DNA from: an uncultured bacterium
Lineage (GTDB): Bacteria; Electryoneota; AABM5-125-24; Hatepunaeales; Hatepunaeaceae
NCBI GenBank assembly: GCA_964387885.1
Contig: CAYLYZ010000005.1
Span: forward strand, 11,404 to 75,403
Length of the DNA stretch: 64,000 bases
Reading direction: 5' to 3'
Shown: positions 81 through 54,668 of the stretch, one piece after another
Layout: each line of letters begins with the position of its first letter
Position numbering within the stretch: the stretch's first letter is position 1
Notes under the pieces: model-generated
What the model was told of the DNA's origin: nothing
Database searches by the model: none
What the model saw: only the letters and a program-made list of their open reading frames with translations
Translations under genes and position numbers: made by a program

Positions 81-2768
81 TTATCGCAGTAAGACTACTT
101 TTTGATTCAGTTCCTCATTCCCAAATTTTGCGTTAAGGAAATAAACACCTGAAACGAGGTTTTCACTCCGAATCTCGACCTGATGAAAACCTGCGAAAAT
201 ACGACCGTTTTTTAATTCTGCCATGTTCCGGCCGTTGACATCATACAAAGCGAGAGTGAGCGTCCCGGTCTCCGGAATTGAGAATTGAACTTGAGTTCTA
301 TTGTTAAACGGATTCGGGTACGGTGCATCTAGATAAAAATCCCTTACAACATTCGATTGATCCCAGATTAATTCCCCATAGGCAAACCCATCATTTTCAA
401 AACGCAGGTTACCCTTAATAATCCTCACTTTGACAACGTACTCGAAAAAACCATCCCAGAGTTTTAAAACAGGCTCTTCTCCGGGTTTCATACCCTCACA
501 ATATTCGGTTGAGGTATCATCCCCCCAGAGCGCTATTCCACAAAGACCTTCCTTATTCGTTGGTTTGCCCACACCTATAAATGTTCCGAGTGGTGTAAAA
601 GCTGCTATTTCGCATACTTCATCAAGATCATGTGTTTTCAGAAGGAGGCTCATGTTTTGACCGGTCGAAGCGGGGGCACTCCAATGCTGCCAAACAATAT
701 CCGGAGCAGTTCCCATTTCACCCATGTTGTTTCTCTCAGGTAGGTAATTCAGGATGACATCCCTCTCGACCTTTATTAAATATCCCCGTGTTTCACACCA
801 TGGACCCATATTGGAGAATTCAAATTCTGTTGAAAGGAAATTTCCAAACTCGTCTTTGGCAATTATGACATCTTCAATGATATTGGAAAGAACCACAAAA
901 TCAGGGGCTTCAGCACTCAGTTCATATCGAGGAAAATATGCAGCAAGATTCCAGCCTTCGGTAAGAGGAACATCCTCATCAAACGGGATTATCTCTCCTT
1001 CCCAAACCGCCTCGACATCTTCGCGGACATTTACCATATAACCTTCGGTTAGATCCCAATACGGAATATTATTAAAACGGAATTGCGGTGACCAGAACCG
1101 ACCAAAATCGTCCTTGACCTGAATAATGTGATGTTCATCTCCTTCTAACCGAAGCTGATTAAAAAGCCAAACGACATCAGGACCTTCGTCGCGATCCCAA
1201 AAGTTATCGTCCGGGATTATGTTCATAGAAACATAATTCCAAGCTTCGAGGAGCGGCATCCTGAGTTCTCTGATGTTACCAATTGAAAACAAAACCGGAA
1301 TCCTGAATTCCGGATCGTTACGATCGTTGGATAGGATTAGAATCTCACCTCGGTTAAGACCATCATTTAAGCCTTCGTCGGTAATTTCAACGATAACATC
1401 AATATCATTATCCGGATCCATTAAAGCCCGATTGGGATCACATGTTATCCAATCTACGTTACAGATAGCATGCCACAATAGTAAATTCTCACCTTCATTA
1501 GTAATATTAAAAACATATTCTCCCGGTTCATTAACCTCAATGAAGTCCGGATCAACAAACATATCAGTTTCTCCATCTACAAGATTTACGCTCAAGGCTC
1601 CGACATCGGCAATTGAGTTGTCAAGGTCTCGCGGTGAATCCGGATCTCCAGCATCGACACAAGGAGAATCTTCCCTGATATTATAATCTCCATCATTTTC
1701 ATCAATGAAACGAGGATCTTCATCAAATACACCTTCACCTCTTTGAATATCTTCATCATTGATGTCTTCAATGAGAGAGTATGAAGCCCTCGCCCGACCT
1801 CCGGAATGGAGCCAGACTGACTCTCGATGATTCCAAATTATTGTGTTTGTTAAATTAATAAATGCACCACCCTGTCCTCCATAACAAAGGATAGCACAAC
1901 GTCCAGGATTATTAGCAATGGTATTATGGTCAAAAACATTAATTTCCGCACCCGCACCTACATACACACCACCGCCAATGTTATCAACAACTATATTATA
2001 TCTTGCTTCAGCGCGACAATTAAATACAAAATACAAACCACCACCCCACGTCATAATATTTGAGAGGTTATTGCGAACAATATTATATTCAACAGTTGGA
2101 GCTCCCCGATCGAAGAACATACCTCCACCATATCCGGACTCATTTCGTTCTACCAGATTATGGGAAATAGTTGCGTTTGAATTGTAAGCTTCTATGGTTC
2201 CCTCTGTGAAAGAGAAATTATCACAGAAATGATTGCTAATTATATCCGCATCACAATTATGGGTATATAAACCGGCGGTGCGACCTGCTGATCGGTTAGA
2301 TCGGAAAGTGTTGTGTGAAAAGAGGGCATCTGTTTCAAAACACGCGACTCCTGCTCCCCGAGCCTCCAACTGATCAAATTCACCAATTGTCTCGGCATGT
2401 TCTATTATTGAATATGAAATCTCCGTGTCATCGTCTGCATTAAAGATTCTTATCCCACGCCACCTCCGACCATTTCTATCTTGAGTAAAAATTATAGAAT
2501 CTTCTTCCGTTCCCACTGCTGTAAGCAGTCCACGAACCCACAATCGATAGGGGCGTCGGAACCGAACAACTACACCAGGTTCTATTAAAAGCTCGTCACC
2601 TCTCTGAATGTCCAGATCATCCACAACGATATATGGAGAACCATCTACATCCCAAACACCTCTGACATTACCCTCAACTTCCGTCTGGGCGGTGCATTGG
2701 GAAATGATTAGAATTAGTATCGCAATTACAGAGTTAAAAATAAATTTCATGCTTTTCTCCCTAAACAA
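81..2768 (-). CDS. T9SS-secreted right-handed parallel beta-helix protein, paralog A. It carries a shared ~390-aa C-terminal cassette plus a T9SS C-terminal sorting domain (CTD). Likely start is the signal peptide MKFIFNSV.. near 2750.
   Basis: 895-aa ORF. N-terminal signal peptide. Repeated NxxGxxxxG beta-helix rungs (NIVVDNIGGGVYVGAGAEINVFDHNTIANN). C-terminus PYPNPFN...SGVYFLNAKF is typical of T9SS CTDs. About 80% aa identity to the next gene. Confidence 0.8.
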   Translation of the reverse strand: MFREKSMKFIFNSVIAILILIISQCTAQTEVEGNVRGVWDVDGSPYIVVDDLDIQRGDELLIEPGVVVRFRRPYRLWVRGLLTAVGTEEDSIIFTQDRNGRRWRGIRIFNADDDTEISYSIIEHAETIGEFDQLEARGAGVACFETDALFSHNTFRSNRSAGRTAGLYTHNCDADIISNHFCDNFSFTEGTIEAYNSNATISHNLVERNESGYGGGMFFDRGAPTVEYNIVRNNLSNIMTWGGGLYFVFNCRAEARYNIVVDNIGGGVYVGAGAEINVFDHNTIANNPGRCAILCYGGQGGAFINLTNTIIWNHRESVWLHSGGRARASYSLIEDINDEDIQRGEGVFDEDPRFIDENDGDYNIREDSPCVDAGDPDSPRDLDNSIADVGALSVNLVDGETDMFVDPDFIEVNEPGEYVFNITNEGENLLLWHAICNVDWITCDPNRALMDPDNDIDVIVEITDEGLNDGLNRGEILILSNDRNDPEFRIPVLFSIGNIRELRMPLLEAWNYVSMNIIPDDNFWDRDEGPDVVWLFNQLRLEGDEHHIIQVKDDFGRFWSPQFRFNNIPYWDLTEGYMVNVREDVEAVWEGEIIPFDEDVPLTEGWNLAAYFPRYELSAEAPDFVVLSNIIEDVIIAKDEFGNFLSTEFEFSNMGPWCETRGYLIKVERDVILNYLPERNNMGEMGTAPDIVWQHWSAPASTGQNMSLLLKTHDLDEVCEIAAFTPLGTFIGVGKPTNKEGLCGIALWGDDTSTEYCEGMKPGEEPVLKLWDGFFEYVVKVRIIKGNLRFENDGFAYGELIWDQSNVVRDFYLDAPYPNPFNNRTQVQFSIPETGTLTLALYDVNGRNMAELKNGRIFAGFHQVEIRSENLVSGVYFLNAKFGNEELNQKVVLLR

Positions 2769-2837
2769 TCAATTAATCACTGGATTTCAAGCCACATTTT
2801 TGAATTTAACATTTCCCGGAAATAATTAAGAATGTAT

Positions 2838-2919
2838 GTCGTCGCGAGGAACGCAGATACGAAGCGATCTGTTTGTAAATATATAACATAAGAGATTGCT
2901 TCGCTTCGTTCGCGATGAC
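2838..2919. repeat. About 82-nt intergenic hairpin repeat element, copy 1. Outer stem GTCGTCGCGA/TCGCGATGAC, inner stem CGAAGCGATCT/AGATTGCTTCG.
   Basis: About 85% identical to the reverse complement of 56401-56482. Nested inverted repeats are readable directly in the sequence. Confidence 0.7.
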
Positions 2920-3005
2920 GTACTATTAAGAAATGCAATAATAATCGCTGGTATTTCTAAATCAAAACATAATTCAGTTAGTTTCTGACTATATGACACG
3001 AGATG

Positions 3006-5684
3006 TCATTTAATCAGCATTAATTTAGTTGTCTTAACTCCAGTATTTCCGTATAATTTTGCGAAATACACCCCGGATGGTGCATCAGAGGCATTCCAGG
3101 CGACGGAGTGATATCCTGCATTGACCTCACCGTGTATTAACCTGGCAATCTCTTCACCACCTACGTTATAAATTGCTAACCTGATAAGATCATCTACTGG
3201 AAGAGCAAACTTTATACTTGTAACAGAATTAAACGGATTCGGGTATGGTGTTTGCAGGATAAAATCCCGAACAATATCGGGTTGATCCCAGATTAATTCA
3301 CCGTATGAAAATCCGTCTGACTCATAACAAAGATCACCCTTAATCGATTTTATCTTAACAGAATATTCGCAAAAACCATCCCACAACTTAAATTGAGGTT
3401 TTTCTCCTGACCGCAAACCCTCATAATCTTGTGTTGAAGTATCATCCCCCCAGAGGGCTATCCCACATAGACCTTCGTTATTTGGTTTTCCCAAACCAAT
3501 AATCGTTCCGGAAGGATTAAAGGCTGCGATCTCACATACCTCATCAAGATCATGTGTTTTAAGTAGAAGACTCATGTTCTGACCGGTTGCCTGAGGGGGA
3601 TCCCAATGCTGCCATATTATACTCTGGGAAGCAGCCATTTCACCCCGGTCCTCTACCTCGGGTGGGTAACTCAGGATGACATCCCTCTCGACCTTTACTA
3701 AATAGCCCCGTGTTTCACGCCAGGGTTCCATATTTGAAAATTCAAATTCCGTGGATAGAAAATTACCAAAATCATCCTTAGCAATTACTACATCATCAAT
3801 TATATTAGATAGGACAACAAAATCAGGCGCGTCCGCACTCAATTCATATCGAGGGAAATATGCTGCAAGATTCCAGCCTTCGGTAAGAGGAACATCATCA
3901 TCGAAGGGAATTATTTCCCCCTCCCAGGACGCTTCGATATCCTCATCAACGTTCAGCATGTATCCCTCGGTTAGATTCCAATACGGGATATTATTAAAGC
4001 GGAATTGAGGTGACCAGAAACGACCAACGTCGTCTTTGATCTGAATGATGTGATGATCATCTCCCTCCAAACGAAGCTGATTAAAAAGCCATACTACAGA
4101 GGGTCCGTCTTCACGATCCCAGAAATTATCACCGGGGATAATATTCATCGAAACATAATTCCAGGCTTCGTTAAGGGACATTCTGAGCTCTCTGATGTTG
4201 CCAATTGAAAGCAAAACGGGAATTCTGAATTCAGGATCATTACGATCATTCGAAAGGATTATTATCTCACCTCTGTTAACTCCGTCATTTAAACCTTCGT
4301 CAGTAATTTCTACAATAACATCAATATCATTATCCGGTTCTAATAAGGCGCGATCCGGATCGCATGTAATCCAGTCTACGTTGCAACTTGATTGCCATAA
4401 CAGTCGATTCTCACCTTCATTAGTTATATTAAAAACATATTCTCCCGGCTCATCAACCTCGATAAAATCCGGATCTACAAACATATCCGTTTCTCCATCA
4501 ACAAGACTCAAGCTCAAGGCTCCTACATCGGCAATCGAATCATCAAGGTCACGCGGTGAATCCGGATCTCCTGCATCAACGCATGGAGAATCATCCCCGA
4601 TATTATAATCACCCTCATTTTCATCAATGAATCGAGGATCTTCATCAAATACACCTTCACCTTCTTCAATTTCTTGGCGATTGATGTCCTCAATTAGTGA
4701 ATAAGAGGCACTCCCACGGCCTCCACTGTGAAGCCATATTGACACATCGTGTCCCCAGACTATCGAATTTCTGAGGTTAATAGACGCACCACCTTGCCCT
4801 CCATAAGAGAGGATACCGCAAGTTCCCGGATTATTGGCAATTGTATTATGTTCAAAAACATCAATTTCCGATCCGGCACCAACATATACACCACCACCGA
4901 TATTATCCACAACTATATTATATCGTACTTCTGCACGACAGCCCCATGCGAAATACAATCCACAACCCCAATCCATTACCGTTGAATCGTTAAATCGAAC
5001 AATGTTATACTCAACTGTGGGAGCTCCCTCGTAAAATATCATGCCTCCACCATGCTGTGACTCATTATTCTCAACAATATTGTGACTGATGTTCGCATTT
5101 GAGTTTATTGCCTCTACTGCCGCATTTGTATCTGCAAAATTATCATAGACATGATTGTGTAGAATATCCGCGTCACAGTTGTCAGTGTAAATCCCGGCAG
5201 TGCGACCGGCAGATCTGTTAAACCTGATTGTGTTGTGTGAAAAGAGAGCATCTGTATTGAAACAGGCTATTCCTGCTCCACGGGCTTCAATATCATCAAA
5301 TTGACCGATTGTTTCTGCATATTCTATTACCGAATATGAAATTTCCGTATCATTATCCGCATTCTCAATTCTTATTCCACGCCATCTTCGTCCAACTCTA
5401 TCCCGAGTGAATATAATCGAATCTTCTTCTGTTCCAACAGCAGTAAGTAAACCATGAACCCACATGCAATTTGGCCGTTCAAATCGGACAACTACTCCCG
5501 GCTCGATAACAAGTTCATCACCTCGCCGGATTTCCACATCATCAACTACAATGTAGGGAGATCCTTCTACATTCCAAACTCCCCTGATATTACCTTCAAC
5601 TTCAGTTTGAGCAAATATCTGCCCGATACTCAATGTTATTAAAACCATTATGGATACTAAAACAACTCTCATGTCATCCTCCAC
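3006..5684 (-). CDS. T9SS-secreted right-handed beta-helix protein, paralog B (tandem duplicate of 81..2768).
   Basis: 892 aa. Same architecture and motifs as paralog A. Nucleotide identity is roughly 85% over long stretches. Confidence 0.8.
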   Translation of the reverse strand: MEDDMRVVLVSIMVLITLSIGQIFAQTEVEGNIRGVWNVEGSPYIVVDDVEIRRGDELVIEPGVVVRFERPNCMWVHGLLTAVGTEEDSIIFTRDRVGRRWRGIRIENADNDTEISYSVIEYAETIGQFDDIEARGAGIACFNTDALFSHNTIRFNRSAGRTAGIYTDNCDADILHNHVYDNFADTNAAVEAINSNANISHNIVENNESQHGGGMIFYEGAPTVEYNIVRFNDSTVMDWGCGLYFAWGCRAEVRYNIVVDNIGGGVYVGAGSEIDVFEHNTIANNPGTCGILSYGGQGGASINLRNSIVWGHDVSIWLHSGGRGSASYSLIEDINRQEIEEGEGVFDEDPRFIDENEGDYNIGDDSPCVDAGDPDSPRDLDDSIADVGALSLSLVDGETDMFVDPDFIEVDEPGEYVFNITNEGENRLLWQSSCNVDWITCDPDRALLEPDNDIDVIVEITDEGLNDGVNRGEIIILSNDRNDPEFRIPVLLSIGNIRELRMSLNEAWNYVSMNIIPGDNFWDREDGPSVVWLFNQLRLEGDDHHIIQIKDDVGRFWSPQFRFNNIPYWNLTEGYMLNVDEDIEASWEGEIIPFDDDVPLTEGWNLAAYFPRYELSADAPDFVVLSNIIDDVVIAKDDFGNFLSTEFEFSNMEPWRETRGYLVKVERDVILSYPPEVEDRGEMAASQSIIWQHWDPPQATGQNMSLLLKTHDLDEVCEIAAFNPSGTIIGLGKPNNEGLCGIALWGDDTSTQDYEGLRSGEKPQFKLWDGFCEYSVKIKSIKGDLCYESDGFSYGELIWDQPDIVRDFILQTPYPNPFNSVTSIKFALPVDDLIRLAIYNVGGEEIARLIHGEVNAGYHSVAWNASDAPSGVYFAKLYGNTGVKTTKLMLIK

Positions 5685-5758
5685 AAAGTATTCATACGAG
5701 TTTCTTACGATGAATGTAAATAGTTTACAAGTATTTAACTACCGTCTTTTACAGAGCC

Positions 5759-7117
5759 CTATTTTCTGATTGATTGACCGATTCCCCACAGCCACTTGAG
5801 GGGCTTATAAATTGTGGGATGATCGCTGATTAAGAGCTTAATATGATAAGGTTTAAATGGACCTCTTGATTTCCAGAGCATCTTCTTGACGATCTGGTAA
5901 TCTACTCCCTTTATCTTCTCTCCATAGGGATTTCTCCTGAATTGTGCATAATCTGTGTTTAGAAGCAGATCATGCTCTAAGCAATAATCATACAGATTCG
6001 TGCCCGGATGTGGCGAATAGAATGCAGCGGAACGTATTTCTGGTTTAATCGTGTTTATCATTCTAACCGTATCCATCATCTCTTCTTCAGTCTCTGTAGG
6101 AATTCCGAGCATATAATTTGCATCAATCATAATATCCAATTCCCGACAGATTTCAGCAGCTTCATAATTCTGCTCTGCTGTTACGCCTTTACGTAGTAAT
6201 TTAAGGATTCTATTGTTCCCACTCTCAAATCCGATGCTGAACATTTTCACACCTGCTTCTCTGAGGTGCTTTATCATGTCCTTTTTCTTGCAAATAATAT
6301 CTGATCTCGATTGGATGATGAATGGTTGACTGAAACCAGCTGCAGTATAACTGTCACAAAATTTGTGTACGTAATCTTCGTCCTCAGTAAAACAATCATC
6401 GTGCAGCATAAAGCTATTAAAACCTGCTGAGTCTCTTAATTCTTCTAATTCACTGATAACATTTGCAACAGAACGTCTCCGGACTTTTCTCCCAAACATT
6501 CTCCTTTCAGCAGGCTGACAGAAGCTACAATTATAAATGCAGCCACGACCGGCTATCAAGGTTACAAATGGTGGCTCAAATAGATTGTGGTAAGGTGTTT
6601 CCGGCTTTGGATAAAAGGATCTGTCAGCAAAGGGAATCCCGTCAAGATCGGGCATAATCCCAGTCGTGAGTCTTGGATATTCCTCGCCCTTTTCAATGTG
6701 ATCTAAAATGATGGGAAAGCTGATTTCTCCTTCTCCTCGCAGTACAAAATCAACACTTTCAAATTTTAAAACATCATCGGGAAAAATGGAGGGGTGGGGT
6801 CCGCCTACCACAATTTTTACAGTGGGAAGGGCTTTTCGGCAGTGTTCAACACCTTCCTTTACTATTTCATAATCAACAGTCATCATCGTAAATCCGACAA
6901 CGTCAGGCTTAGTTTTCATCAACTCGCGACTAAAAGCCTGCCAACCGGATAATCTTCTTAAATCGATAAGTCTGACACTATGCCCTGATCTTTTTAAAAC
7001 AGCGCTGAGAATACTCAAACCATGGGAGATATAGGAACCTTCCTGACTACTTCCATAGCTATTAAAACCACATCTACTGATGCCTGTATGTATTAGTGCT
7101 GTATGCATGATTTTCAA
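5759..7117 (-). CDS. B12-binding-domain radical SAM enzyme (class B-like).
   Basis: 452 aa. N-terminal Rossmann-like cobalamin-binding region. CxxxCxxC motif GRGCIYNCSFCQ, typical of the radical SAM core. Confidence 0.8.
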   Translation of the reverse strand: MKIMHTALIHTGISRCGFNSYGSSQEGSYISHGLSILSAVLKRSGHSVRLIDLRRLSGWQAFSRELMKTKPDVVGFTMMTVDYEIVKEGVEHCRKALPTVKIVVGGPHPSIFPDDVLKFESVDFVLRGEGEISFPIILDHIEKGEEYPRLTTGIMPDLDGIPFADRSFYPKPETPYHNLFEPPFVTLIAGRGCIYNCSFCQPAERRMFGRKVRRRSVANVISELEELRDSAGFNSFMLHDDCFTEDEDYVHKFCDSYTAAGFSQPFIIQSRSDIICKKKDMIKHLREAGVKMFSIGFESGNNRILKLLRKGVTAEQNYEAAEICRELDIMIDANYMLGIPTETEEEMMDTVRMINTIKPEIRSAAFYSPHPGTNLYDYCLEHDLLLNTDYAQFRRNPYGEKIKGVDYQIVKKMLWKSRGPFKPYHIKLLISDHPTIYKPLKWLWGIGQSIRK

Positions 7118-7182
7118 AGAGGTTTTCCAAGTTTATCCGCAAATATCCCGAAGACAGCTTTATCGAAATACTCACTAAAAAG

Positions 7183-7233
7183 CAACAAAGCAATTCCATA
7201 TATATAATATATACGTGAAATTGCTTTGTTGCA
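7183..7233. promoter_or_regulatory. Perfect 14-bp inverted repeat GCAACAAAGCAATT-N23-AATTGCTTTGTTGC, 65 bp upstream of the radical SAM start.
   Basis: Seen directly. A second small hairpin CACAGG-T7-CCTGTG follows at 7252-7271. Confidence 0.4.
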
Positions 7234-7298
7234 AATTTGTTAAGGTCTTGCCACAGGTTTTTTTCCTGTGAGACTCTTAAGTTAGAGTCGATAAAGAA

Positions 7299-10200
7299 TT
7301 ATTTCAGCAGCATTAATTTTGCGACCTTAATATCGGTGCTGCCGGATAATCTTGCGAAATAAACTCCCGAGGAAATCGTCGATGCGTTCCATGTCGCAGA
7401 ATGATAACCAGCAGTGAGATCACTGTTAATTAGCGTCGCGACTTCGCGACCGGACACGTCATAAATCGAAAGCCTTACATGTTCATGGCTTGGAAGTGCA
7501 AAGTTTAATCTGGTTGTTGCATTAAAGGGATTCGGGTATATACCGGTTAGTCCGAATTCGGTTGGGATCTCACTCATTGAGAGTTTACCGGTTTCTAATC
7601 CGTCTGTCTTAAATACAATTTCACCTGACTCGTTGAGCTGTGCTGACAGCTCGGAATGTCCTGTCCAGACTCGAAGCTCAGCACCCTCTCCATCAACTAA
7701 GCCCTCAATTTCATCAGTTGCGGGGTTATCACCCCATACCGCAAGACCACACCTGCCTTCAGAATCAAATCTGCCACTTCCTACAACTCTTCCGGATTCT
7801 GTTATCGCAGCCAGCTCCCAACCAGCATTATCTGGTGAGCCCTGTGCAAAAACACTCATATTAATTCCAGTTGGTGTCAGAATTGTATAATGGTTTGGAT
7901 CAACAGGGACATCCGCGGTTACAAACGCAACCCGTTCACCTTCACCATCCTGATAGATGAGCTCAACATCTTCTGAAACGTTAAATTGATAAGCTGACAG
8001 CTCAGCCATCTCACCCATATTGCTGAAACCGAATTCAGGTAGATAGAAGCGTCCCAACACATCCTTTGCTAATAGCAATTGGTCAGCAATTCCTGCTAAG
8101 GCAACAGTAGCATCAATTGGATCTCGTGGGAAATATGCTTTCATGTTCCAGCCTTCCGATAGTGCAATCGGAGTGTCAAACGGGATTTCCATCCCCGTGA
8201 TCTCAAGTGAAGTGTCTTCGGTAACTCCAATCAGGAAACCTTCACCAACAGCCCATTCCGGGATATTATTGAAGTTGTGCGCCGGCAGATAAAATCGTCC
8301 CTGACCGTCTTTGAATATGATTATCTGATCCTGTTCAACCAGTGGTGCAAGTATCGTGGGAATATCCCTTTCTTCAGGGTTGACATTAAGCGAAATCATG
8401 TTCCACCCTTCAACCATTTCAATGAGCCGATCATCAATACGTGGTCCTGCCGGCAATACTTCCAGTGAAATTTCTATCAGAGTTTCACCACCCTCAGCAT
8501 TATGAGTGTAGACAAGATCTCCGACAAACTCCACTTCCGGCAATCCCGTGGAATTCAAGGTCAACAGAAAATCTTCGGATTCATCCGGTTCAAGTGATCC
8601 GGTAACCGGCTCAACCTGCATCCAATCCCGACGGACATCAAGTTGCCATATATCAATGCGATCATTAGGTCCGGTGTTAGAAATCGTTATAAACACCCAA
8701 CTGTAAACATCAAATTGGTTGGTAATAAAACTTGCAGCAGGCGTACCACCGGCTTCCGGTTCAAGTATCTCAACAAACGCGGTATCACCGTTATCAGGAT
8801 TCATCTTATGGACTATCTGGTCAGCAATCTGAGAATTCTTGTGGTAAATATATAATCCAAACCCGTCAGGATCTTCAGGCCAATAAGATAAGCCATAAAC
8901 CCTAAGACTTTGCCTGTCCAATTCTCCGACTTCATTACCTTCCCGATCGAGACCTATAATGTCAGAGGTTGTACTCGACACCCACATTATTTCACGGTCA
9001 GGATCCCACGCGAAATTGTTATTTGGGTTAAATGGTCCGTCAGCCTCAAGCATTAACTCACCATCGGGAGTGAATGCATAAACATTACCAGTTCCGGAAC
9101 CCCAGATCCATTCACCGTCGAATCCAAGATCCTTGTGTCCATAGCCTCCGCCTGGACCGAACTGGTCATATTGTTCGATCAATTCACCCTCTCGGTTAAC
9201 GACGTAAATCTGAGGATCACGATTATTTGAACCGGCAACATAGAACCTGTCTTCAATGAAAACAACACCCTGAAGTCGACTGTCACCTATTTCTTGCCCT
9301 ACCGGATAGCCACGTCTATATTCCCATGGATCAGCATTTGCATCTCCGCGCAACTCTCGTGCTACACTCCAGGTGAGCATACCATTTCCGGTGTTTGTAA
9401 CAGTGAATTCATGCTCTGAAGCCTGTGCTTCCGGAAGTCTGTTTGCAATACGCTCTGTCGAAGGTGTAAATTCAGGATGCAATAAAGAGAAATCTATGGT
9501 TTCTTCTTCATCTTCGGGAATTTCGAAATCAAATTTTGTTGAATCATTGTATCCCAGTTTGCGTGCTGAAATGTCAAATGGAACTTCAGCAAGTGCACCA
9601 TTAATCGTGTATTCACCATTTTCATCCGTTACAGCAGTAAAGCCATGTTCAGTAGCGACAACAACACCCTCAACGGGTTCTCCCGTTTCGAAGTCAGTAA
9701 CCGTACCGACGACTATACAGGCCTTGTATCGCGGTGATGTTGAATAGAAAATCGCTCGGCGAGCTGCTAAGGGTGCAGATGTTACCGGATATTGATTGTT
9801 ATAAGAATAGCTCAATCCCGTTGTTCCATCCGGGCTTGATATTCCTACAGAAGCATATGGTACGTTTTTCTCCCATGCGCTTCCCTCTTGAGGACCTCTC
9901 GCCTGGGATATGGACTTATACTGTATCAGAATATTCTGATCACCGGTTTCGGTAATCCAAACATCATGGTCATAAAGGATAACCTGGAAGGTTAAATCGT
10001 TGTTTCCTCCTTCACGGTGTCTTAATCTGTACCATTCGATGATGAAACGAGCATCATCTTCATCGTAATAATAATAGATCTCACCATTATTCCCGAGTTG
10101 CAGCCAATCCCAGAATGGAGCAATAGTTCCTGCTCCGGCACCGATACCCTGATCAAGCGGCCAATTCTGGAAATTAGTTATTTCTCCCTGATCTCCCATG

Positions 10201-13200
10201 CAGATATAACCGTTCGTACAAACCGTAACCTGATCAAAAATCTCACCATAGTACTGGTTTTCGAACGGCAGATCCAAAACAACTGATTCCCCGACATTAT
10301 GCTCTGAACGTCCTGTGAAATCATCAATTAGTGTACCATCAAAATCACGGTCATCATCCTCTCTGCTAATCTCAACCCATTCATATTCAGGTGCAATCTC
10401 CCAATCATCGTCAGTGTTATCAAAGCAAATATACCCGTAATCATCGGGACCCTGTGGACTGTTTTCCCCTGTTTCACCAACCTGCAGATCGAAATAGGCT
10501 GTATCAACAAAGCCTTCCTCATTCGTTAGAACAAGCATCATCGGATTTGTCATACCGGGGACAACGACACTGTTACCACTGATTGTGAAGCGCTGATTTC
10601 CCTCCAGTCTTTCGTGTCTATTCGACCTGATTGCCGGGAAAGCAGCAGTTGCTTCAACAACTCCAACTCCCATATCAAGTGAGAATAACTCACCCTCGAC
10701 CGGAGAACTATTCAGACCTCCGATATTCTCAAGATCGATATCTAACTCGTCCATCTCCGTAGGGACAACATTACCACCTGGGATGGCGCGAACCTTGAAA
10801 TTCGGGGCTACAGGCAGTAATTCAATTGCTGACTGCCACGTCGTTTCACCAGATGTAAATTCAACCATCAATTTTGGTCTTGTCGAAGGACGGGCTTCAC
10901 CATCAGGACAAGATTGATGAAGAGTAAATGCGACTTCTTCTTCACCATCAGCAGTTTCTCCGTTGGCAATATCCCCAAAAGAAATTTCATTTTCTTCAAC
11001 TTCTATCCAGGGTGAATTACTTGTTACTACTGCTGTAACAGCTTCGGCGTCGTCACGGTTTCCAAGGTTGCCTGCTGTTAGGGCAATTGTAAAGGATTCA
11101 CCAGGACTCAAATCCGGATCTTCATCACCTTCAACCTCGGTAAAATCGTATCCTGCAATATCTACCGCTATTCGAGGTGTTTCAATTTCAATCTCACCAA
11201 AATTCGGGAGGATATCCCGTCCGGTAGTTGTTACAAACATCGTCCCGCGATCAAATTCATTTCCATCTTCAAACACAAATCTCGCATAACCGTCAGCTCC
11301 TGTGAACATTGTCATCTGGAATACTTCGTGATTAGCATATTGTGCTCCACCATCAGGCAGATCTCCGGGAACATATAGCGTTACCCTGGCACCCTCGAAT
11401 GGTGCATCTTCATCGTCAGGTTCGTGAACGTAAACTTCAACCAATCTTGATTCAGTGGAAATAGATTCAACATGCTCCATTTCGACCTCGATCGGAACAC
11501 CCCGCCAGGGTTGGATTCCAGGATCACCATAAGCATCAACATCTGTTTTAACAATCAGGTAGGACCGTTGACCTCTAAATTGAACATCCTGAAAATACTG
11601 TTCGAAATTATTTTTCCCGTAAATATGTCCCCATCCAAAATTCATATCATGCTGCATCACACCATCAACCAATCCAAGCCAGAAAACACTCATCGGTGCT
11701 GTGGGAGGTCCGCCCCATCCACATGTTGCGGCAACCCAGCCTTTGAGGTTATTTCCATCACCTGTTCGAGTCATGTGCCATGTAGCCCACTCTCCATGCC
11801 CACTGGAATTCAGACGTATTGGGAATACTACATTCCGATCAACACCATTAAAGTTCTGACGCCAATAATAAACTTCAGCACGACTCATTACTACATTCGT
11901 TTGGCCGTTTAGAAGATCACGAACCCATGGACCATATCGGGCAGCCCGTTGGTCCCAATCGTAATCCTCAAAGGTATCGATTTCATCATAACCCAAATGT
12001 TCAAGTACTTCAGCGCCCCATCGAACATTGGTGTTGATCGTAACATGCCAGGCTGTGTTTGCTCCATTCCCCCAGTGAGTGGAACCTACACCACCGTGAG
12101 TAAACCAGTCCGTATTTTCCATATAGGGTTCAGCCTCATAAGCCAGAGTCCTGCCAACGTTGAGTGCCATGAGCTGATTGCTGCCTGATGCCCACCTTGC
12201 ATAACCGACATCCGGATGGTTGTCATTACCGTCAAGAAGAGCGAATTTGTAATCAGCATGTGCCGGATTTCCCCAGAGACTTTCACCGGCTTCAGCATGA
12301 ACCACCCATTGTGAGTTGGGTCCGCAACTCTGATGATTCTGACGATCACCAATAATCAATAAGTTGTCGAATGGATCTTCACCTTCTTCAACATAGCCGT
12401 TATATAGATCTCTGATGTTTCTTCTGACTGAGTTCGCATCCTGCTGACCCAGACTTAGGATATCAACCTTGTAACCGGCTTTCCGTCGCCATTCTATAAA
12501 AGGTCTCGCAGGAATTACGCAGTTCGGGTGGGATGCGATGCAATAGTGACCCGCCCAGGGTGAAATCTTCTCTGCATCATCTCGCAAAAGAACATCCGAG
12601 TTAGCTGCTATTGCATCTATATATTTAATGAACTCACGGCTCATAGTCCTGCGCTCCGGATGTTCGACAGGATTAACCGGGGCTTCGTCCGTATATACAA
12701 CCTCAGCTTGAATGTTCTCGCGATGCAGATATGTATTTGTTTCCGCATTATACTGCATCGGGTAAGTTGATACCATTACCATTCGAACTCCACGGACGAT
12801 CACAGGAGCAGACATCTCTGCTATTACAGGGGGATAGACGCCGGTTAGTTCTTCGACATCTCCATCGTGAAACTCAGCAAACTTCTCATCGAGGTTTAGC
12901 AAGGGTGGATTTTCCGCTCTTGTTTCGACAGGTGTGCTGCTGTTTACTTCGAGCCTCAGTCCTGCATCAGGAGGAACAATGATGAAACGGCTGACACGTG
13001 GCAAGACCGGTTTGCCAAACTCATAGGTTAGTCCTTCACCAGTGAGAGATGTTGCTGTAAAGGTCTGGTTCTGATATTCGACGGCTCTTGTAACAATTGA
13101 TCCAAAATCATAGTCGATTAGAACACTGTGATCACCAGTCTGAACTTCCGCAGTCTGAAACCGAACGTCTTCAGATATGCCTGCAGAAAAACTTACAGGT

Positions 13201-13250
13201 GTAATAATTAAATAAATAAGAAGGAAAACAAAGATAGCAGTCTTATGCAT
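7299..13250 (-). CDS. Giant T9SS cargo protein. Probable gingipain-like peptidase C25 region at the N-terminus. It also has a carboxypeptidase-regulatory-like domain, the shared C-terminal cassette and a T9SS CTD.
   Basis: 1983 aa with a signal peptide. The G.P.LP...I.P block (TYEFGKPVLPRVSRFIIVPPDAG), FIEWRRKAGYKVDIL, LLIIGD and SGHGEW motifs resemble the C25 family. CIVVGTVTDFETGEPVEGVVVATEHGFTAVTDENGEYT is CarbopepD_reg-like. The C-terminus is GIYPNPFN...SGVYFARL. Confidence 0.75.
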   Translation of the reverse strand: MHKTAIFVFLLIYLIITPVSFSAGISEDVRFQTAEVQTGDHSVLIDYDFGSIVTRAVEYQNQTFTATSLTGEGLTYEFGKPVLPRVSRFIIVPPDAGLRLEVNSSTPVETRAENPPLLNLDEKFAEFHDGDVEELTGVYPPVIAEMSAPVIVRGVRMVMVSTYPMQYNAETNTYLHRENIQAEVVYTDEAPVNPVEHPERRTMSREFIKYIDAIAANSDVLLRDDAEKISPWAGHYCIASHPNCVIPARPFIEWRRKAGYKVDILSLGQQDANSVRRNIRDLYNGYVEEGEDPFDNLLIIGDRQNHQSCGPNSQWVVHAEAGESLWGNPAHADYKFALLDGNDNHPDVGYARWASGSNQLMALNVGRTLAYEAEPYMENTDWFTHGGVGSTHWGNGANTAWHVTINTNVRWGAEVLEHLGYDEIDTFEDYDWDQRAARYGPWVRDLLNGQTNVVMSRAEVYYWRQNFNGVDRNVVFPIRLNSSGHGEWATWHMTRTGDGNNLKGWVAATCGWGGPPTAPMSVFWLGLVDGVMQHDMNFGWGHIYGKNNFEQYFQDVQFRGQRSYLIVKTDVDAYGDPGIQPWRGVPIEVEMEHVESISTESRLVEVYVHEPDDEDAPFEGARVTLYVPGDLPDGGAQYANHEVFQMTMFTGADGYARFVFEDGNEFDRGTMFVTTTGRDILPNFGEIEIETPRIAVDIAGYDFTEVEGDEDPDLSPGESFTIALTAGNLGNRDDAEAVTAVVTSNSPWIEVEENEISFGDIANGETADGEEEVAFTLHQSCPDGEARPSTRPKLMVEFTSGETTWQSAIELLPVAPNFKVRAIPGGNVVPTEMDELDIDLENIGGLNSSPVEGELFSLDMGVGVVEATAAFPAIRSNRHERLEGNQRFTISGNSVVVPGMTNPMMLVLTNEEGFVDTAYFDLQVGETGENSPQGPDDYGYICFDNTDDDWEIAPEYEWVEISREDDDRDFDGTLIDDFTGRSEHNVGESVVLDLPFENQYYGEIFDQVTVCTNGYICMGDQGEITNFQNWPLDQGIGAGAGTIAPFWDWLQLGNNGEIYYYYDEDDARFIIEWYRLRHREGGNNDLTFQVILYDHDVWITETGDQNILIQYKSISQARGPQEGSAWEKNVPYASVGISSPDGTTGLSYSYNNQYPVTSAPLAARRAIFYSTSPRYKACIVVGTVTDFETGEPVEGVVVATEHGFTAVTDENGEYTINGALAEVPFDISARKLGYNDSTKFDFEIPEDEEETIDFSLLHPEFTPSTERIANRLPEAQASEHEFTVTNTGNGMLTWSVARELRGDANADPWEYRRGYPVGQEIGDSRLQGVVFIEDRFYVAGSNNRDPQIYVVNREGELIEQYDQFGPGGGYGHKDLGFDGEWIWGSGTGNVYAFTPDGELMLEADGPFNPNNNFAWDPDREIMWVSSTTSDIIGLDREGNEVGELDRQSLRVYGLSYWPEDPDGFGLYIYHKNSQIADQIVHKMNPDNGDTAFVEILEPEAGGTPAASFITNQFDVYSWVFITISNTGPNDRIDIWQLDVRRDWMQVEPVTGSLEPDESEDFLLTLNSTGLPEVEFVGDLVYTHNAEGGETLIEISLEVLPAGPRIDDRLIEMVEGWNMISLNVNPEERDIPTILAPLVEQDQIIIFKDGQGRFYLPAHNFNNIPEWAVGEGFLIGVTEDTSLEITGMEIPFDTPIALSEGWNMKAYFPRDPIDATVALAGIADQLLLAKDVLGRFYLPEFGFSNMGEMAELSAYQFNVSEDVELIYQDGEGERVAFVTADVPVDPNHYTILTPTGINMSVFAQGSPDNAGWELAAITESGRVVGSGRFDSEGRCGLAVWGDNPATDEIEGLVDGEGAELRVWTGHSELSAQLNESGEIVFKTDGLETGKLSMSEIPTEFGLTGIYPNPFNATTRLNFALPSHEHVRLSIYDVSGREVATLINSDLTAGYHSATWNASTISSGVYFARLSGSTDIKVAKLMLLK

Positions 13251-14252: not shown

Positions 14253-16058
14253 CTAAGGTAAATACAGTAAACGCGTCACAGCAAAATTGCTTCCACCTGC
14301 TATCCTGCAAAAATATAAACCAGAAGTCAATCCAAGTACCTGTGAATCAATTACGGCTTCATATTTTCCAGGCTCTATCTGTTTGCCCTGCAACTGAGTT
14401 ATTAATCTGCCGGTCTGATCAATAATTTCAATTTTTCCGTTTTCAAAAGTCGTTGACCGAAATATTATTCTCGCAAAAGAATTAAACGGATTTGGATAAA
14501 CCTGCAATTTTATTTCTGATGGGACTGACGGATTATCAACAATAATAGGTGCTGACATTGGATTATCCGCAGGCCTGAGCCCGCTTCGGTACATATCCGC
14601 TTTGTAGGTCAACCACACATCCTCGGTGACCAGTCCAGGCGTGTCCCAGATGAAAACTCGACGATCAGTAGTGGCTGCAACTAAATCGAGGTCACCATCC
14701 ATATCGATATCCCAGATTGTCGGGGTTGCTGAAATGACACCTCCACCATGATTTCGAAGTGAGATCGGAAAACCATCGAGAACATTTCCGTTTGAATCCC
14801 ATGCTGATATTAGTCCATGATTTCCCTCAACAGGGGATAAAGCTGCAATGATATCAGTAGTTCCATCACCTGACATATCAGCCAGTAATGCAGATCCAAT
14901 AACTGAGTTATCTAATCTTATCGGGAAAGACTCCAGAACTTCTCCGTCCATGGTCCAGGCGTATATCCTTCCCTCAGAATCAGGGTTAAAACTTCCAAAG
15001 ACGATTTCTGGATTATCATCACCATTAATATCAGCTATAACCGGATTACCTTCTGGATGTCCGGGTACACATTCAACCGGGAATCCATCAAGGATTTCAC
15101 CATTCCCATTGAGCACATATACTCCTGCCATATTTTCATCGGCAACAGCTGCCCAAAATATTATTTCCAATCCACCATCACCATCAATATCCGCAAGAGA
15201 AGGTGAACCCCCAATTGTATGGAAATTCCCAAATGGAAAACCTTCAACCACGGATCCATCGCATTCCCATGCCCATATTTGGGCATAGTTTTCTAAATAC
15301 CGGGAATTACCAATGACTATATCCGGATTGCCATCGTTGTTAATATCTCCTGATACAGGAGAAGATCCCGAACCACGGGGATATTCTACTGGCCAGTTTT
15401 CTAATTCGTCACCATTTCTTTTAATTACATGTAAAAGGGCACTGGTGTTTAAGCTGTCAGGATTGGATGAATATGTATTAAGGATAATTTCGAGCTCTCC
15501 ATCATCATCGAAATCAGATAGTACCGGTACACCGGAATGAATTTGATTCCCGAAATCAATGGGAAAAGGTTCCGGCTCACTTTCATCCTCGCGAACAACA
15601 TGGAGATATCCGATATCTGTTGAATAGATAATCTCTCTGAAACCGTTACCGCAAAAATCACCGGTTGCCGCAGTAGCATTGTGTCGAGGATTTATCCATG
15701 ACCTGGGGCGATTGCCAATATGAGCTCGGGATGGAAATCCGGGAAAATTTGCTGCATCATGTTGAAATGCATGAAGCCTGTTTTCAGTATTAAGAACAGC
15801 CAGTTCCCAATCTCCGGTATTATCAAAATCCATTACGGCGATGCTTTGTCCCCATAATGCTGCTGATCCGGCCATCCCTCTTGGCCAGCCAAATTGAACG
15901 TTAAAATCCTCTGGATTATCTCGGACAGGTCCTTTTGAATTTGACAATAAGCCAAAAGACGTGTTTTCCTCGTACTCTGTTGTATGTTCAGTAGCGATAA
16001 CACTCTGGCATACTAAAAAGGATATTGCTGTTAAGCAAATCAGTAGCGTTTTATTCAT
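14253..16058 (-). CDS. FG-GAP repeat (integrin-alpha-like) beta-propeller protein with a T9SS CTD.
   Basis: 601 aa. Repeats DFDDDGELEIIL, DINNDGNPDIVIG, DIDGDGGLEIIF, DINGDDNPEIVFG, DMSGDGTTDIIA. C-terminus VYPNPFNSFARIIF...SGLYFCRI. Confidence 0.8.
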   Translation of the reverse strand: MNKTLLICLTAISFLVCQSVIATEHTTEYEENTSFGLLSNSKGPVRDNPEDFNVQFGWPRGMAGSAALWGQSIAVMDFDNTGDWELAVLNTENRLHAFQHDAANFPGFPSRAHIGNRPRSWINPRHNATAATGDFCGNGFREIIYSTDIGYLHVVREDESEPEPFPIDFGNQIHSGVPVLSDFDDDGELEIILNTYSSNPDSLNTSALLHVIKRNGDELENWPVEYPRGSGSSPVSGDINNDGNPDIVIGNSRYLENYAQIWAWECDGSVVEGFPFGNFHTIGGSPSLADIDGDGGLEIIFWAAVADENMAGVYVLNGNGEILDGFPVECVPGHPEGNPVIADINGDDNPEIVFGSFNPDSEGRIYAWTMDGEVLESFPIRLDNSVIGSALLADMSGDGTTDIIAALSPVEGNHGLISAWDSNGNVLDGFPISLRNHGGGVISATPTIWDIDMDGDLDLVAATTDRRVFIWDTPGLVTEDVWLTYKADMYRSGLRPADNPMSAPIIVDNPSVPSEIKLQVYPNPFNSFARIIFRSTTFENGKIEIIDQTGRLITQLQGKQIEPGKYEAVIDSQVLGLTSGLYFCRIAGGSNFAVTRLLYLP

Positions 16059-16156
16059 GCAGTACCTTAACGTGTCAAACGCCGATGTCTTTGGAATAAA
16101 TCTCCCAAAAAACTCGGCGTTGATGACAAATAGTTTTCGAAATTCCGTAAGTTCTA

Positions 16157-19135
16157 CTATCGAAGCAATTCAACCGGACGTATAACGCGGTTCACTGCCG
16201 ATTGAATCTCCATAAAATACATTCCACTCGGAAGAGGTTCTCCGGATACTCCTGTCCCATGCCAGAGCATTCTGTGAGTTCCTGGGGATAATTGTAAAGT
16301 TTGAACACCGTACACTTCACGACCGAGTATATTAACTACGCGCATTGTCAGTCGTCCGGGTTGTGAAATCCTGATCGGGACAATAACGGAGCTGTTAAAT
16401 GGATTTGGATATGCGGGATCAACAATGAACGCTTCCGGAACAGAAGGCTTTTGAGGATCATAAGGAACATCTCGATTTCCGACATAAGAACCGGCAAAGC
16501 AGAATACCGTTCCATTTTCCATTGCCCCAAAAATGTCCATCTCACCATTTCCATCTATGTCGCGAGCTCCTTCAACAAGGACAAATCCATGCCCTTCATC
16601 GACATTGCTATATGACCATAGACCGTCCGAACCATTTCCGCTGTAAGCATATAACCTGCCACTGGCAGTGCCAACAAGAAAATCCATTCTGTTATCGAAA
16701 TCATAATCCATTAAAAGCGCCATTGAAGCGGTGACTGATCCGACATAAACAGACGTATCCCATGCTGCTTCAGAAGTACGACCGTCAATTGCTCTGATCA
16801 CAAAGTCATCCCCGTAAAGTATATCAGGGCTGCCATTGCCATTAACATCGTTGGTCGGAATTGCTTTCTGAAGTTCTGGATGAGATCGATTATTCCATAG
16901 TGTTATACCATTGGAACCATTTATTACGGTTATTCCACTGTTATAAGTCTGGAATCCAATATCCGTGCTGCCATCACCGTTAGCATCATCTAATAGCGAA
17001 AAAGAACTGCGGATTGAACCCTCGACTTCATTTTCCCAGACCACTCTACCACGACGCCCATCAACACCTCGAACACCTCCGTCCTCAAACACTACCGTTA
17101 AATCGTCGATGTGATCACCATTAAAATCAGGGACGATGTAAGAGTATTTCGGGATGCCATCGAGCTCAAGTTCCCAGATAAGCCTTCCGGTTTCGCCGTT
17201 CAAAAGAACAATCGCATTTGTTGTGTGCTGTTCATCCACAGCTGCAATTGCAGCAAAAACATCTAATATCTCATCACCATTGAAATCCTGTTCCCCATTG
17301 GCAACAATTATGTTTCCTCCACTGCCATGCATCCCATTGCTATCAAATACCCAAATCACTTCACCGGTTCGACCGGATAAAGTGATTACCTGTTTTGCGC
17401 CTCCGGATAAACCAACAACGATGTCTTTTACGCCATCTTCATCCAGATCGTCGGTGTTTGAAAGTGCATCCGGGTTCTTAACCAAACCTCTGCGCCATGG
17501 ATTAAGATTGGTGTGGTATGTCCAAATCGCAATTGCGGTATCGGTGGATGCCGCATGATAAGCACGAATCTTAAAATCGTTCGATGCGATAACCACATCG
17601 GCTAATCCATCACCTGTGACATCATCGATCGCTTTTATTGCTCGAGCCTGCGGAACAGGCATCTCACGGTTCCCGACTACAGTTGTCCAAAGAACTTCCC
17701 CGGCGCGGTAGTTATCAAGTTCGGTTGTACCGCTGAGGGAAACTGCAATCTCAGGTGTGTCCGGATCATTGCTTCGAATTAAAACGGATTCTGCGAAGGC
17801 TCTATTATCATATCTGTTTGGTCTAAAGAAAATGGGAATTCTGTATAATCCGGGTTCATTAAAGGTGTGTGGGAAATCGTAATAGCCACTCCAAAATGAA
17901 TCATTTGAAAAACGAAGTTCTTCTATACGTAACGGTTCTGCACCTTCACTCTCTATTTCAAGATATCTCAGGTTTGATCCATTTACCAATGCCCCGCAAC
18001 GGGTTTCACCAAAGTCTATTACACGTTGATGGATAACGATATTACGTTCTCTTCGGATGCCCTTTCCACGTAAGTCAACCCAATATGTTTCATCATCAAT
18101 ATCATATGTAAAACCCCATTGAATTCTGACAGAATCTTCATAGCCAGGTTCAAATGCAAACCTCATTAGTGCAGAATCTCCTCCTGCCAGATATTCCGGA
18201 AAGCGCCAGACATAGGGTACAAAGATATCCTCGTTGCCATCTCTGGATTGCAATTCAATAAGCCTTGCACGACGAGCACCATCATTAAAAACCCACAAAT
18301 CCCATTCAACCATTTCACCGATCTGGACAGATCCGAAGTTGTGGTTTAATGTGGAGAATCGAATATTACCATCCAATATTGTAAGAACTTTATAAAGTCT
18401 GTCTGTTTCTCCGTCCACACCATTATCAATCATCCAAAGGTAGGTCCCGTCGGATGTCAGTCCATCCGGATTATTCCCGGGAGTCTCAAATGTTCTGACG
18501 AAACGACCGCTCTCGGGGTTAACTTCACGAATCTCCTGGGCAAGGCGATCAGCCACAAATACTCTACCCCGATGGAATGCCGCATCACGAGTGTGACGGC
18601 CTGTAAAAGGCATGGAGCGAAGAACTCTACCCTTAGCATCCAGCTGTAAAATCGTACCATTTTGAGCTGAAAATGTTGCAGTCCAAAACGTCGTTCCATC
18701 TTTTCCAAGACCACCAAGGTTCGGCAGAGGATTGTCAAACGCTACCATACTGCCATTTCTATTAACATAATAGGTTTGATCACTGCGTGGAGATTGATAA
18801 GCAAGTCCACCATTAAGAGCCGCAAGCCCAATACAATCGGGAATTGGTGCGCGAATACTGTCTACTATCAAGCCCGATTCAGGGTCTAAGGATCTAATCC
18901 ACTCGCCACGTTCACCTATTCCGCCTATCCAGAGGAATTCACCGTCCCATGCCAATCCGGAAGAATACTCCGGAATATCAAATGTTTCGATAATGGGATC
19001 GGCTCCAACCGTTCCGGAAATGAGGATAATAACAAGAATAACTGTAATCATCCCGGTACTAAACCTGATCATGGAAGTTGCGTCATCGTTTCCGATGTTC
19101 TTTTGAAATCTGAGATTGATTTGTCTTTTAAACAT
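16157..19135 (-). CDS. Large T9SS cargo protein. N-terminal beta-propeller resembles glutaminyl cyclase. It is followed by Ig-like regions, about 8 FG-GAP repeats and a CTD.
   Basis: 992 aa. N-terminal blades GLAWDGEFLWIG, GKDGTTFWTAT and GLTSDGTYLWMID. FG-GAP repeats such as DVTGDGLADVVIA, DLDEDGVKDIVVG and DVNGNGSPDILYG. C-terminus YPNPFNSSVIVPIRIS...SGMYFMEI. Confidence 0.8.
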   Translation of the reverse strand: MFKRQINLRFQKNIGNDDATSMIRFSTGMITVILVIILISGTVGADPIIETFDIPEYSSGLAWDGEFLWIGGIGERGEWIRSLDPESGLIVDSIRAPIPDCIGLAALNGGLAYQSPRSDQTYYVNRNGSMVAFDNPLPNLGGLGKDGTTFWTATFSAQNGTILQLDAKGRVLRSMPFTGRHTRDAAFHRGRVFVADRLAQEIREVNPESGRFVRTFETPGNNPDGLTSDGTYLWMIDNGVDGETDRLYKVLTILDGNIRFSTLNHNFGSVQIGEMVEWDLWVFNDGARRARLIELQSRDGNEDIFVPYVWRFPEYLAGGDSALMRFAFEPGYEDSVRIQWGFTYDIDDETYWVDLRGKGIRRERNIVIHQRVIDFGETRCGALVNGSNLRYLEIESEGAEPLRIEELRFSNDSFWSGYYDFPHTFNEPGLYRIPIFFRPNRYDNRAFAESVLIRSNDPDTPEIAVSLSGTTELDNYRAGEVLWTTVVGNREMPVPQARAIKAIDDVTGDGLADVVIASNDFKIRAYHAASTDTAIAIWTYHTNLNPWRRGLVKNPDALSNTDDLDEDGVKDIVVGLSGGAKQVITLSGRTGEVIWVFDSNGMHGSGGNIIVANGEQDFNGDEILDVFAAIAAVDEQHTTNAIVLLNGETGRLIWELELDGIPKYSYIVPDFNGDHIDDLTVVFEDGGVRGVDGRRGRVVWENEVEGSIRSSFSLLDDANGDGSTDIGFQTYNSGITVINGSNGITLWNNRSHPELQKAIPTNDVNGNGSPDILYGDDFVIRAIDGRTSEAAWDTSVYVGSVTASMALLMDYDFDNRMDFLVGTASGRLYAYSGNGSDGLWSYSNVDEGHGFVLVEGARDIDGNGEMDIFGAMENGTVFCFAGSYVGNRDVPYDPQKPSVPEAFIVDPAYPNPFNSSVIVPIRISQPGRLTMRVVNILGREVYGVQTLQLSPGTHRMLWHGTGVSGEPLPSGMYFMEIQSAVNRVIRPVELLR

Positions 19136-19165
19136 TTCTTATCCAACTATGCGATGAAATTAAAA

Positions 19166-39487: not shown

Positions 39488-39490
39488 GAA

Positions 39491-40786: not shown

Positions 40787-40918
40787 TATATTTCCCTCCG
40801 GTAGAATTCTCAAAGGACCTGCATTATTACAAAAATATAAAGTTCTCACTTCGCAGAGTCAATAGGAAAAAAAGGCACTATTATACCTAATTCAATGACA
40901 GCCTCGAACAACAGACCG

Positions 40919-54667: not shown

Positions 54668-54668
54668 T

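Follow-up and report, generated by a model that had tools for sequence, protein, structure and literature searches.

The 64,000-nucleotide stretch of contig CAYLYZ010000005.1 analysed here (the window) carries on its reverse strand the genes of three proteins, designated A, B and C (Table 1), which share one multi-domain C-terminal tail ending in a type IX secretion system (T9SS) sorting domain. A and B are paralogs that align from end to end at 74% identity (BLASTP), and both have a head matched by Pfam Beta_helix (E 1.4e-10 in A). Protein C starts as a C25 protease: Propeptide_C25 scores 28.5 bits (cutoff 22) and Peptidase_C25 52.6 bits (cutoff 23), the latter over profile positions 1-167 of 374 only. 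The motifs SGHGEW and AATCGW, found by eye 3' of this partial match at residues ~480-520 of C (window 11750-11850, reverse strand), look like the His-Gly and Ala-Cys elements of a predicted clan CD catalytic dyad. Sec-type signal peptides were read from the translations of A, B and C (MKFIFNSVIAILILIISQCTAQ, MRVVLVSIMVLITLSIGQIFAQ and MHKTAIFVFLLIYLIITPVSFSAG), and Por_Secre_tail occupies the extreme C-terminus of all three (Pfam; 1.9e-8 in A).

The tail common to the three proteins comprises about 475 C-terminal residues. In BLASTP, residues 421-895 of A align with residues 1522-1983 of C at 32% identity (E 1.4e-67), and residues 419-892 of B align with the same segment at 37% identity (E 2.7e-85); upstream of the shared tail, where a beta-helix stands against a C25 protease, neither A nor B gives any alignment with C. 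The initial annotation, made from the sequence alone, had described one C-terminal arrangement behind unrelated N-terminal regions, and these alignments bear it out. Its estimate of ~390 residues fell short: the tail is real, and an upstream immunoglobulin-like (Ig-like) domain of ~80 residues belongs to the common part as well. The starts it gave were right for A (1259) and B (4181), while that for C (8369) lies ~55 nt too late.

From N to C, the tail consists of the Ig-like domain, two alpha/beta domains of ~80 residues each (D1 and D2), a beta-sandwich (D3) and a type A T9SS C-terminal domain (CTD). We refer to D1-D2-D3 as the cassette. Boundaries of D1, D2 and D3 were set by hmmsearch with profiles built on homologs.

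Table 1. Genes of proteins A, B and C, the domains of their shared tail, and a locus with D1-D2-terminal genes. Positions are those of the window unless another contig is named; i-E, independent E-value; ORF, open reading frame; AF2, AlphaFold2; pLDDT, predicted local distance difference test.
Feature	Position	Strand	Residues	Description and evidence
Protein A	81..2768	-	895 codons from TTG	Signal peptide, right-handed beta-helix, Ig-like, D1, D2, D3, CTD; ORF list, translation, Pfam
A Ig-like	1269..1508	-	~421-500	BACON/ASH-like; start of BLASTP alignment to C
A D1	972..1262	-	503-599	Long subtype; hmmsearch i-E 6.4e-33
A D2	744..971	-	600-675	hmmsearch i-E 1e-32
A D3	366..689	-	694-801	Beta-sandwich, CGIALWGDD; hmmsearch i-E 1.8e-37
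A CTD	84..320	-	817-895	PF18962 34.9 bits (cutoff 27), TIGR04183 36.9 bits (cutoff 23)
Protein B	3006..5684	-	892 codons from GTG	Architecture as in A; ORF list, BLASTP, Pfam
B Ig-like	4191..4430	-	~419-498	BLASTP to C; weak Cep192_D6/BACON_2 Pfam matches
B D1	3897..4184	-	501-596	hmmsearch i-E 1.1e-31
B D2	3663..3893	-	598-674	hmmsearch i-E 2.7e-33
B D3	3291..3611	-	692-798	hmmsearch i-E 2.9e-40
B CTD	3009..3245	-	814-892	PF18962 30.3 bits, TIGR04183 35.0 bits
Protein C	7299..13250	-	1983 aa	Signal peptide, Propeptide_C25, Peptidase_C25, CarboxypepD_reg, unassigned regions, Ig-like, D1, D2, D3, CTD; ORF list, Pfam
C Ig-like	8451..8687	-	~1522-1600	BLASTP to A and B; AF2 pLDDT below 50
C D1	8169..8423	-	1610-1694	Short subtype; hmmsearch i-E 5.4e-34; AF2 pLDDT above 90
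C D2	7950..8168	-	1695-1767	hmmsearch i-E 6.6e-32; AF2 pLDDT above 90
C D3	7578..7895	-	1786-1891	CGLAVWGD; hmmsearch i-E 7.8e-37; all-beta, pLDDT about 85-96
C CTD	7302..7541	-	1904-1983	PF18962 37.3 bits, TIGR04183 39.6 bits
L010, three adjacent genes ending in D1-D2	6520-11013 of JGI 3300009314 contig Ga0117908_1000142			414-aa unknown, 299-aa P0015, 681-aa Peptidase_M14; no D3 or CTD after D1-D2

Comparison of the domains with each other by hhalign showed that D1 and D2 are homologous repeats (probability 99.8%, E 2e-28) and that D3 is related neither to them nor to the CTD. In A, B and C alike, the final ~80 residues belong to the type A CTD family (PF18962 Por_Secre_tail, TIGR04183); both cut-offs are exceeded in each protein and the matches end 3-4 residues short of the C-terminus. 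This family covers only the last element of the tail, D1-D3 being separate from it and without profile similarity to it (hhalign probability at most 10.6%). D3 was also considered as a diverged second CTD, which was rejected at the same value of 10.6%, and the type B CTD of the T9SS (TIGR04131, NCBIfam) matched neither the tail nor D1-D2 at E<=0.1. The cassette is an accessory module of T9SS cargo, and the CTD behind it is of the ordinary type A.

All the signature motifs quoted by the initial annotation are present in the domains so defined. D1 carries GRF(W/Y).P...FNNIP.W..EGY, D2 a related form with FSNM, and D3 CG(I/L)A(L/V)WGD within a wider signature of NMS.L, G.G and CG.A.WGDD..T. Of ~585 D1/D2 domains, at least 90% keep W in GWN, K and G in KD..G, P in FY.P, and GY; the conserved positions of D1-D2 include aromatic and Asn/Asp residues.

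A and B possess a "long" D1 with the insertion NFWDRDEGPD...LRLEGDEHH, C a "short" D1. Either subtype is met again in further proteins and genomes, where it has closer relatives. Since the tails of A/B and C are only 32-37% identical and belong to these separate subtypes, sharing of the cassette between A/B and C is ancient and does not stem from an exchange that took place lately inside this genome. On the same grounds, a recent recombination between the two was rejected.

Public databases contain protein B both as an 888-aa sequence starting from ATG (P0079) and as an 892-aa sequence (P0300), and the cluster of P0079 also has a member of 892 aa; D1-D2 of P0079 is 100% identical to that of B. 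The true start of B is probably this internal ATG (MRVVLVS...) and not the GTG at window 5684. Likewise, A probably starts at an ATG six codons inside the TTG reading frame (MKFIFNS...), the start at window 2768 being too far upstream. A gene for a B12-binding radical SAM enzyme (5759-7117, reverse strand) lies between the cargo genes B and C, and the order C, radical SAM, B, A is found again on the 103-kb ENA metagenome scaffold carrying P0079. For C, a full-length ortholog with 51% identity exists in a Calditrichota metagenome-assembled genome (MAG; P0120, MBT7787259.1). Opposite the Ig-like/D1 region of A and B, the forward strand has two antisense ORFs of 137 aa (1273-1686 and 4195-4608), most likely shadow ORFs that both stay open because A and B are paralogs.

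We also searched the curated libraries. In Pfam, four cassette fragments (D1-D2, D3) retrieved no family at E<=10, and 29 members scanned singly at E<=1 gave scattered single matches with nothing consistent among them; the ordinary Ig, fibronectin type III (FN3), PKD and Big families of Pfam match neither D1 nor D2 nor D3. Carbohydrate-binding module (CBM) families appeared once in these 29 members, as a weak CBM64 match (E 0.043), and no other similarity to them was seen. NCBIfam matched the CTD alone and holds no model for D1-D3, and a D1-D3 profile run against PDB sequences found none at E<=10. In the literature searched, neither the motifs nor T9SS in combination with Calditrichaeota or Caldithrix gave any result. 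The "long CTD" of the literature was considered as this cassette and rejected; the paper in question treats the ordinary seven-strand CTD. D1-D3 are therefore uncurated families, D1-D2 and D3 both being undescribed, as the initial annotation had supposed in proposing an uncharacterised domain family.

AlphaFold2 modelled the stretch from D1 through the CTD with pLDDT above 90 for most residues, and D1-D2 alone with pLDDT 95.6 and a predicted template modelling score (pTM) of 0.87. In these models each D1/D2 repeat is a mixed alpha/beta domain built from roughly seven strands plus a short helix, and D3 and the CTD are all-beta. Foldseek found no match to the D1-D2 model in PDB (best E 0.13, TM below 0.3), and D1-D2 might represent a new fold. 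The model of the whole cassette matched only generic tandem Ig arrays of S-layer and adhesin proteins, and D3 and the domain upstream of D1 are, as modelled, Ig-like beta-sandwiches. The block as a whole does not reduce to ordinary Ig/FN3 domains, the D1-D2 pair being alpha/beta and unmatched by Foldseek in PDB.

The sole structural neighbour of the D1-D2 model in the libraries searched is BFVD entry A0A8D9C8P8, a 587-aa "putative hemin binding protein" of an uncultured marine phage. The match is borderline (E 1.9e-3, TMq 0.57, 9% identity). A tblastn search of GenBank phages with D1-D2 found nothing, and A0A8D9C8P8 may be a bacterial T9SS-type protein placed in a viral bin.

The distribution of the module was taken from 1.84 billion cluster representatives, searched exhaustively with a HMMER profile. 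Cassette matches numbered 14,833 at E<=1e-3; tightening the threshold to E<=1e-10 left 8,756, and to E<=1e-30, 3,239. Architectures were classified with our own D1, D2, D3 and CTD profiles on 147 new proteins, taken from the best 150 of the 14,833, together with 27 proteins of an earlier search. Of the new proteins, 141 of 147 (96%) finish with (D3)-D1-D2-D3-CTD, the CTD being their last element. The commonest architectures in the classified set are D3-D1-D2-D3-CTD (63 proteins) and D1-D2-D3-CTD (57 proteins); members of the set are ~450 to 7,635 residues long.

Por_Secre_tail was present in every one of the 35 long members scanned with Pfam. The heads are very different: Peptidase_M6, Peptidase_S8, Beta_helix, LVIVD and other propellers, FG-GAP, Laminin_G_3, Chlamydia PMP repeats and cadherin-like domains were all encountered, and Ig domains of the ASH/HYDIN type are frequent. 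No glycoside hydrolase occurs among the 25 commonest partner families listed, of 44 found. Modular shuffling among T9SS cargo, suggested initially from three genes, can hence be followed through thousands of proteins with very different N-terminal domains.

Several members depart from the simple head-cassette-CTD plan. P0028, P0029, P0030, P0033, P0034 and P0036 are giants of 2,781-7,635 aa with 7-15 copies of D3. NCBI names two of them (P0033 and P0036) "choice-of-anchor D domain-containing protein", so D3 alternates there with ASH-type Ig domains in adhesin-like arrays. P0058 from Cloacimonadota contains five tandem D1-D2 pairs. At the other extreme, P0031, P0032, P0038, P0043, P0180 and P0212 are nearly cassette-only, consisting of a signal peptide and one or two cassettes; the first four of these have D1-D2-D3 twice and then the CTD.

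Taxonomic assignment rests on a handful of named MAG proteins, which belong to Calditrichota, candidate division KSB1, Candidatus Kapabacteria, Bacteroidota and Cloacimonadota; one D1-D2 protein is assigned to Promineifilaceae (Chloroflexota). A search with a narrow D2 alignment led to nine loci; they lie in three MAGs, of which two bear the name Calditrichaeota. At least six cassette genes of the C subtype occur in a single Calditrichaeota MAG. Around the genes of D1-D2-only and cassette-only proteins (loci L010-L015) there is neither a conserved partner nor a T9SS gene. Taken together, these data support the view that the tail is a mobile and conserved module of several domains, borne at the C-terminus by T9SS cargo of Calditrichota and allied phyla of the Fibrobacterota-Chlorobiota-Bacteroidota (FCB) group.

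A consistent association of the cassette with T9SS cargo had been anticipated. For the full D1-D2-D3 form it holds, the block being nearly always directly followed by the CTD (141/147 and 35/35 in the two sets above). For the D1-D2 pair it does not. In 46 of 113 shorter proteins sampled, D1-D2 is the last domain and no CTD is present (39 with D1-D2, 7 with D3-D1-D2), and in 43 of these 46 it ends within 0-5 residues of the C-terminus. At the L010 locus the D1-D2-terminal trio (Table 1) is followed 3 kb downstream by a Beta_helix gene whose product bears a CTD and no cassette. By nearest-neighbour analysis, 19 of 55 terminal D1-D2 units have a non-terminal unit as closest relative. Terminal and CTD-linked units are intermixed, and D3-CTD has therefore been gained or lost repeatedly.

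Nor does every CTD protein carry the cassette. The window encodes ten CTD proteins, of which three have the cassette and seven lack it. One cassette-less trio (14253-22081, reverse strand) consists of consecutive FG-GAP/PQQ-like beta-propeller proteins of 601, 992 and 971 aa; another (27103-29346, 30346-32580 and 32655-34901, forward strand) consists of tandem paralogs of ~745 aa with PKD-like domains; and a small CTD protein without the cassette is encoded at 54639-55385. As most cargo of the window is without the cassette, and D1-D2 occurs without a CTD, the cassette is probably not needed for T9SS recognition.

Modules of comparable organization are known. In Porphyromonas gingivalis, RgpA, Kgp and HagA share a haemagglutinin/adhesin (Cleaved_Adhesin) region, thought to mediate adhesion and the formation of surface complexes. 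This block is the closest functional analogue of our cassette, being non-catalytic, multi-domain, situated between a C25 head and the CTD, and reused behind other heads. The two are not homologous (no Cleaved_Adhesin match in Pfam), and the present cassette is far more widespread, with dozens of head types. RgpB and other Bacteroidota cargo have an Ig-like (IgSF) domain before the CTD. D3 resembles it in position and fold class only, the D3-CTD model being similar to tandem Ig arrays; it differs in its own signature, in the lack of any Pfam Ig/FN3 match and in its multi-copy repeats. S-layer homology (SLH) domains, LysM, CBMs and dockerins have in common with the cassette a C-terminal bias, tandem duplication, many unrelated heads and small module-only proteins, but neither sequence nor detectable fold similarity. 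The NCBIfam "choice-of-anchor" domains lie beside alternative C-terminal anchors, and D1-D2, too, occurs with and without a CTD; A, B and C match none of them at E<=0.1, and D1-D3 are distinct from them.

How might the cassette work? The explanation we favour, with about even confidence, is that it constitutes an autonomous surface pedestal or binding module of T9SS cargo. The T9SS pathway, comprising Sec export, passage through the T9SS, removal of the CTD and fixation on the surface, is established in Porphyromonas and Flavobacterium. By analogy with these organisms, the cargo would be exported by Sec, the CTD would drive passage through the T9SS and then be removed, and the new C-terminus just after D3 would become fixed to the outer surface. 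D3 and D1-D2 would then form a cell-proximal pedestal bearing the variable head, be it a protease, a beta-helix or a propeller. D1-D2 itself would be a binding unit of its own, lectin-like or self-associating; its partner would be an envelope component, another D1-D2 or particles, and it would thereby keep proteins at the cell envelope or on particles.

Several points weigh against this explanation. No component of the T9SS machinery (SprA/Sov, PorK-N, PorU, PorV) is present among the scanned ORFs of the window. The architectures come from the best 150 of the 14,833 matches, a list biased to full-length cassettes. Finally, because D1-D2 is found in CTD-less proteins and in the one Chloroflexota-assigned MAG protein, its role, judged from sequence, is not tied to the T9SS.

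D1-D2-D3 could alternatively be a passive stalk, which only spaces the catalytic head from the outer membrane in the way of Ig-like or FN3 spacers. The position of the cassette between head and CTD fits such a role, as do the generic tandem Ig arrays that are the only matches of D3 and the upstream beta-sandwiches, and the 10-15 repeats of D3 in giant proteins. Nevertheless, cassette-only proteins have no head to raise, D1-D2 at the very end of CTD-less proteins has nothing to space from, and its invariant residues are kept across phyla. We hold a purely passive stalk to be rather unlikely. Because of the cassette-only proteins, the tandem D1-D2 arrays and the strong residue conservation, the cassette is probably not merely a stalk, and D1-D2 is most likely more than a passive spacer, with a putative binding role.

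The terminal D1-D2 units admit yet another interpretation, for which we see a small chance: D1-D2 may by itself constitute a hitherto unrecognised C-terminal domain for surface docking or for sorting, by which CTD-less enzymes dock beside T9SS-anchored D1-D2-D3-CTD partners. Self-association of D1-D2, or a shared envelope ligand, would join CTD-less proteins such as the L010 trio with its M14 carboxypeptidase to the anchored ones. If true, this would mean a multi-enzyme coat of cohesin/dockerin type on the cells of Calditrichota, Kapabacteria and KSB1.

It is similarly improbable that D1-D2 serves substrate targeting in a CBM-like manner, binding an environmental polymer or particle and bringing the enzyme to its substrate. 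The C-terminal position, the tandem copies in P0058 and the conserved aromatics are typical of binding modules, and degradative heads (C25, M6, S8, M14) are among the partners. The partner families listed nevertheless include no glycoside hydrolase, and the heads are chemically disparate, ranging from proteases through propellers to adhesin repeats, so that one common substrate is unlikely; CBM similarity is confined to the weak CBM64 match mentioned above. A role in secretion, with the cassette extending the T9SS signal for PorV/PorU recognition (as the initial annotation had suggested) or acting as a folding or quality-control element for transport, has the near-constant contact of full cassette and CTD in its favour and is very improbable as a general role, given the seven cassette-less CTD proteins of the window, the cassette-less beta-helix CTD protein of L010, the D1-D2 proteins that are CTD-less or assigned to Chloroflexota, and published modelling in which the CTD alone is enough for PorV binding (PMC11969387).

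The remainder of the window deserves brief mention. The first two PKD paralogs (27103-29346 and 30346-32580) share ~80 identical residues from the end of the last repeat into the first part of the CTD (…EITSIVHDGIEADTIRWTVNVEEWSFTTDLTDLTDLPSSPVLYSASPNPFNASIKLSMYLPRKNHVLLSVFDVNGREVSRL), a sign that gene conversion may recently have occurred between them. The 1-kb gap separating them contains an ORF of 119 aa with a signal-peptide-like start (29894-30253). The reverse strand at 37101-45129 has a gene cluster that may form an envelope- or biofilm-related operon; it encodes two proteins with LPP20-lipoprotein domains, a DUF6175 protein, a family 2 glycosyltransferase and a TPR protein of 1012 aa. 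In sign, the GC skew goes with the coding strand, changing over near 26 kb and near 35 kb. Neither tRNA genes nor Rfam families at gathering score were found in window 1-64000.

Environmental bacteria of the FCB group (Calditrichota, KSB1, Kapabacteria, Cloacimonadota) have among their T9SS cargo the extracellular proteases that are thought to drive turnover of detrital protein in sediments. In thousands of such cargo proteins, current annotation misses a module of ~300-475 residues and labels the proteins merely "T9SS type A sorting domain-containing protein". Three defined domain families would better annotate at least 14,800 protein clusters. Definition of the cassette would also give a handle for predicting which enzymes remain cell-bound, and its confident structural model, possibly of a new fold, would provide a basis for studying cargo display beyond the well-studied Bacteroidota.

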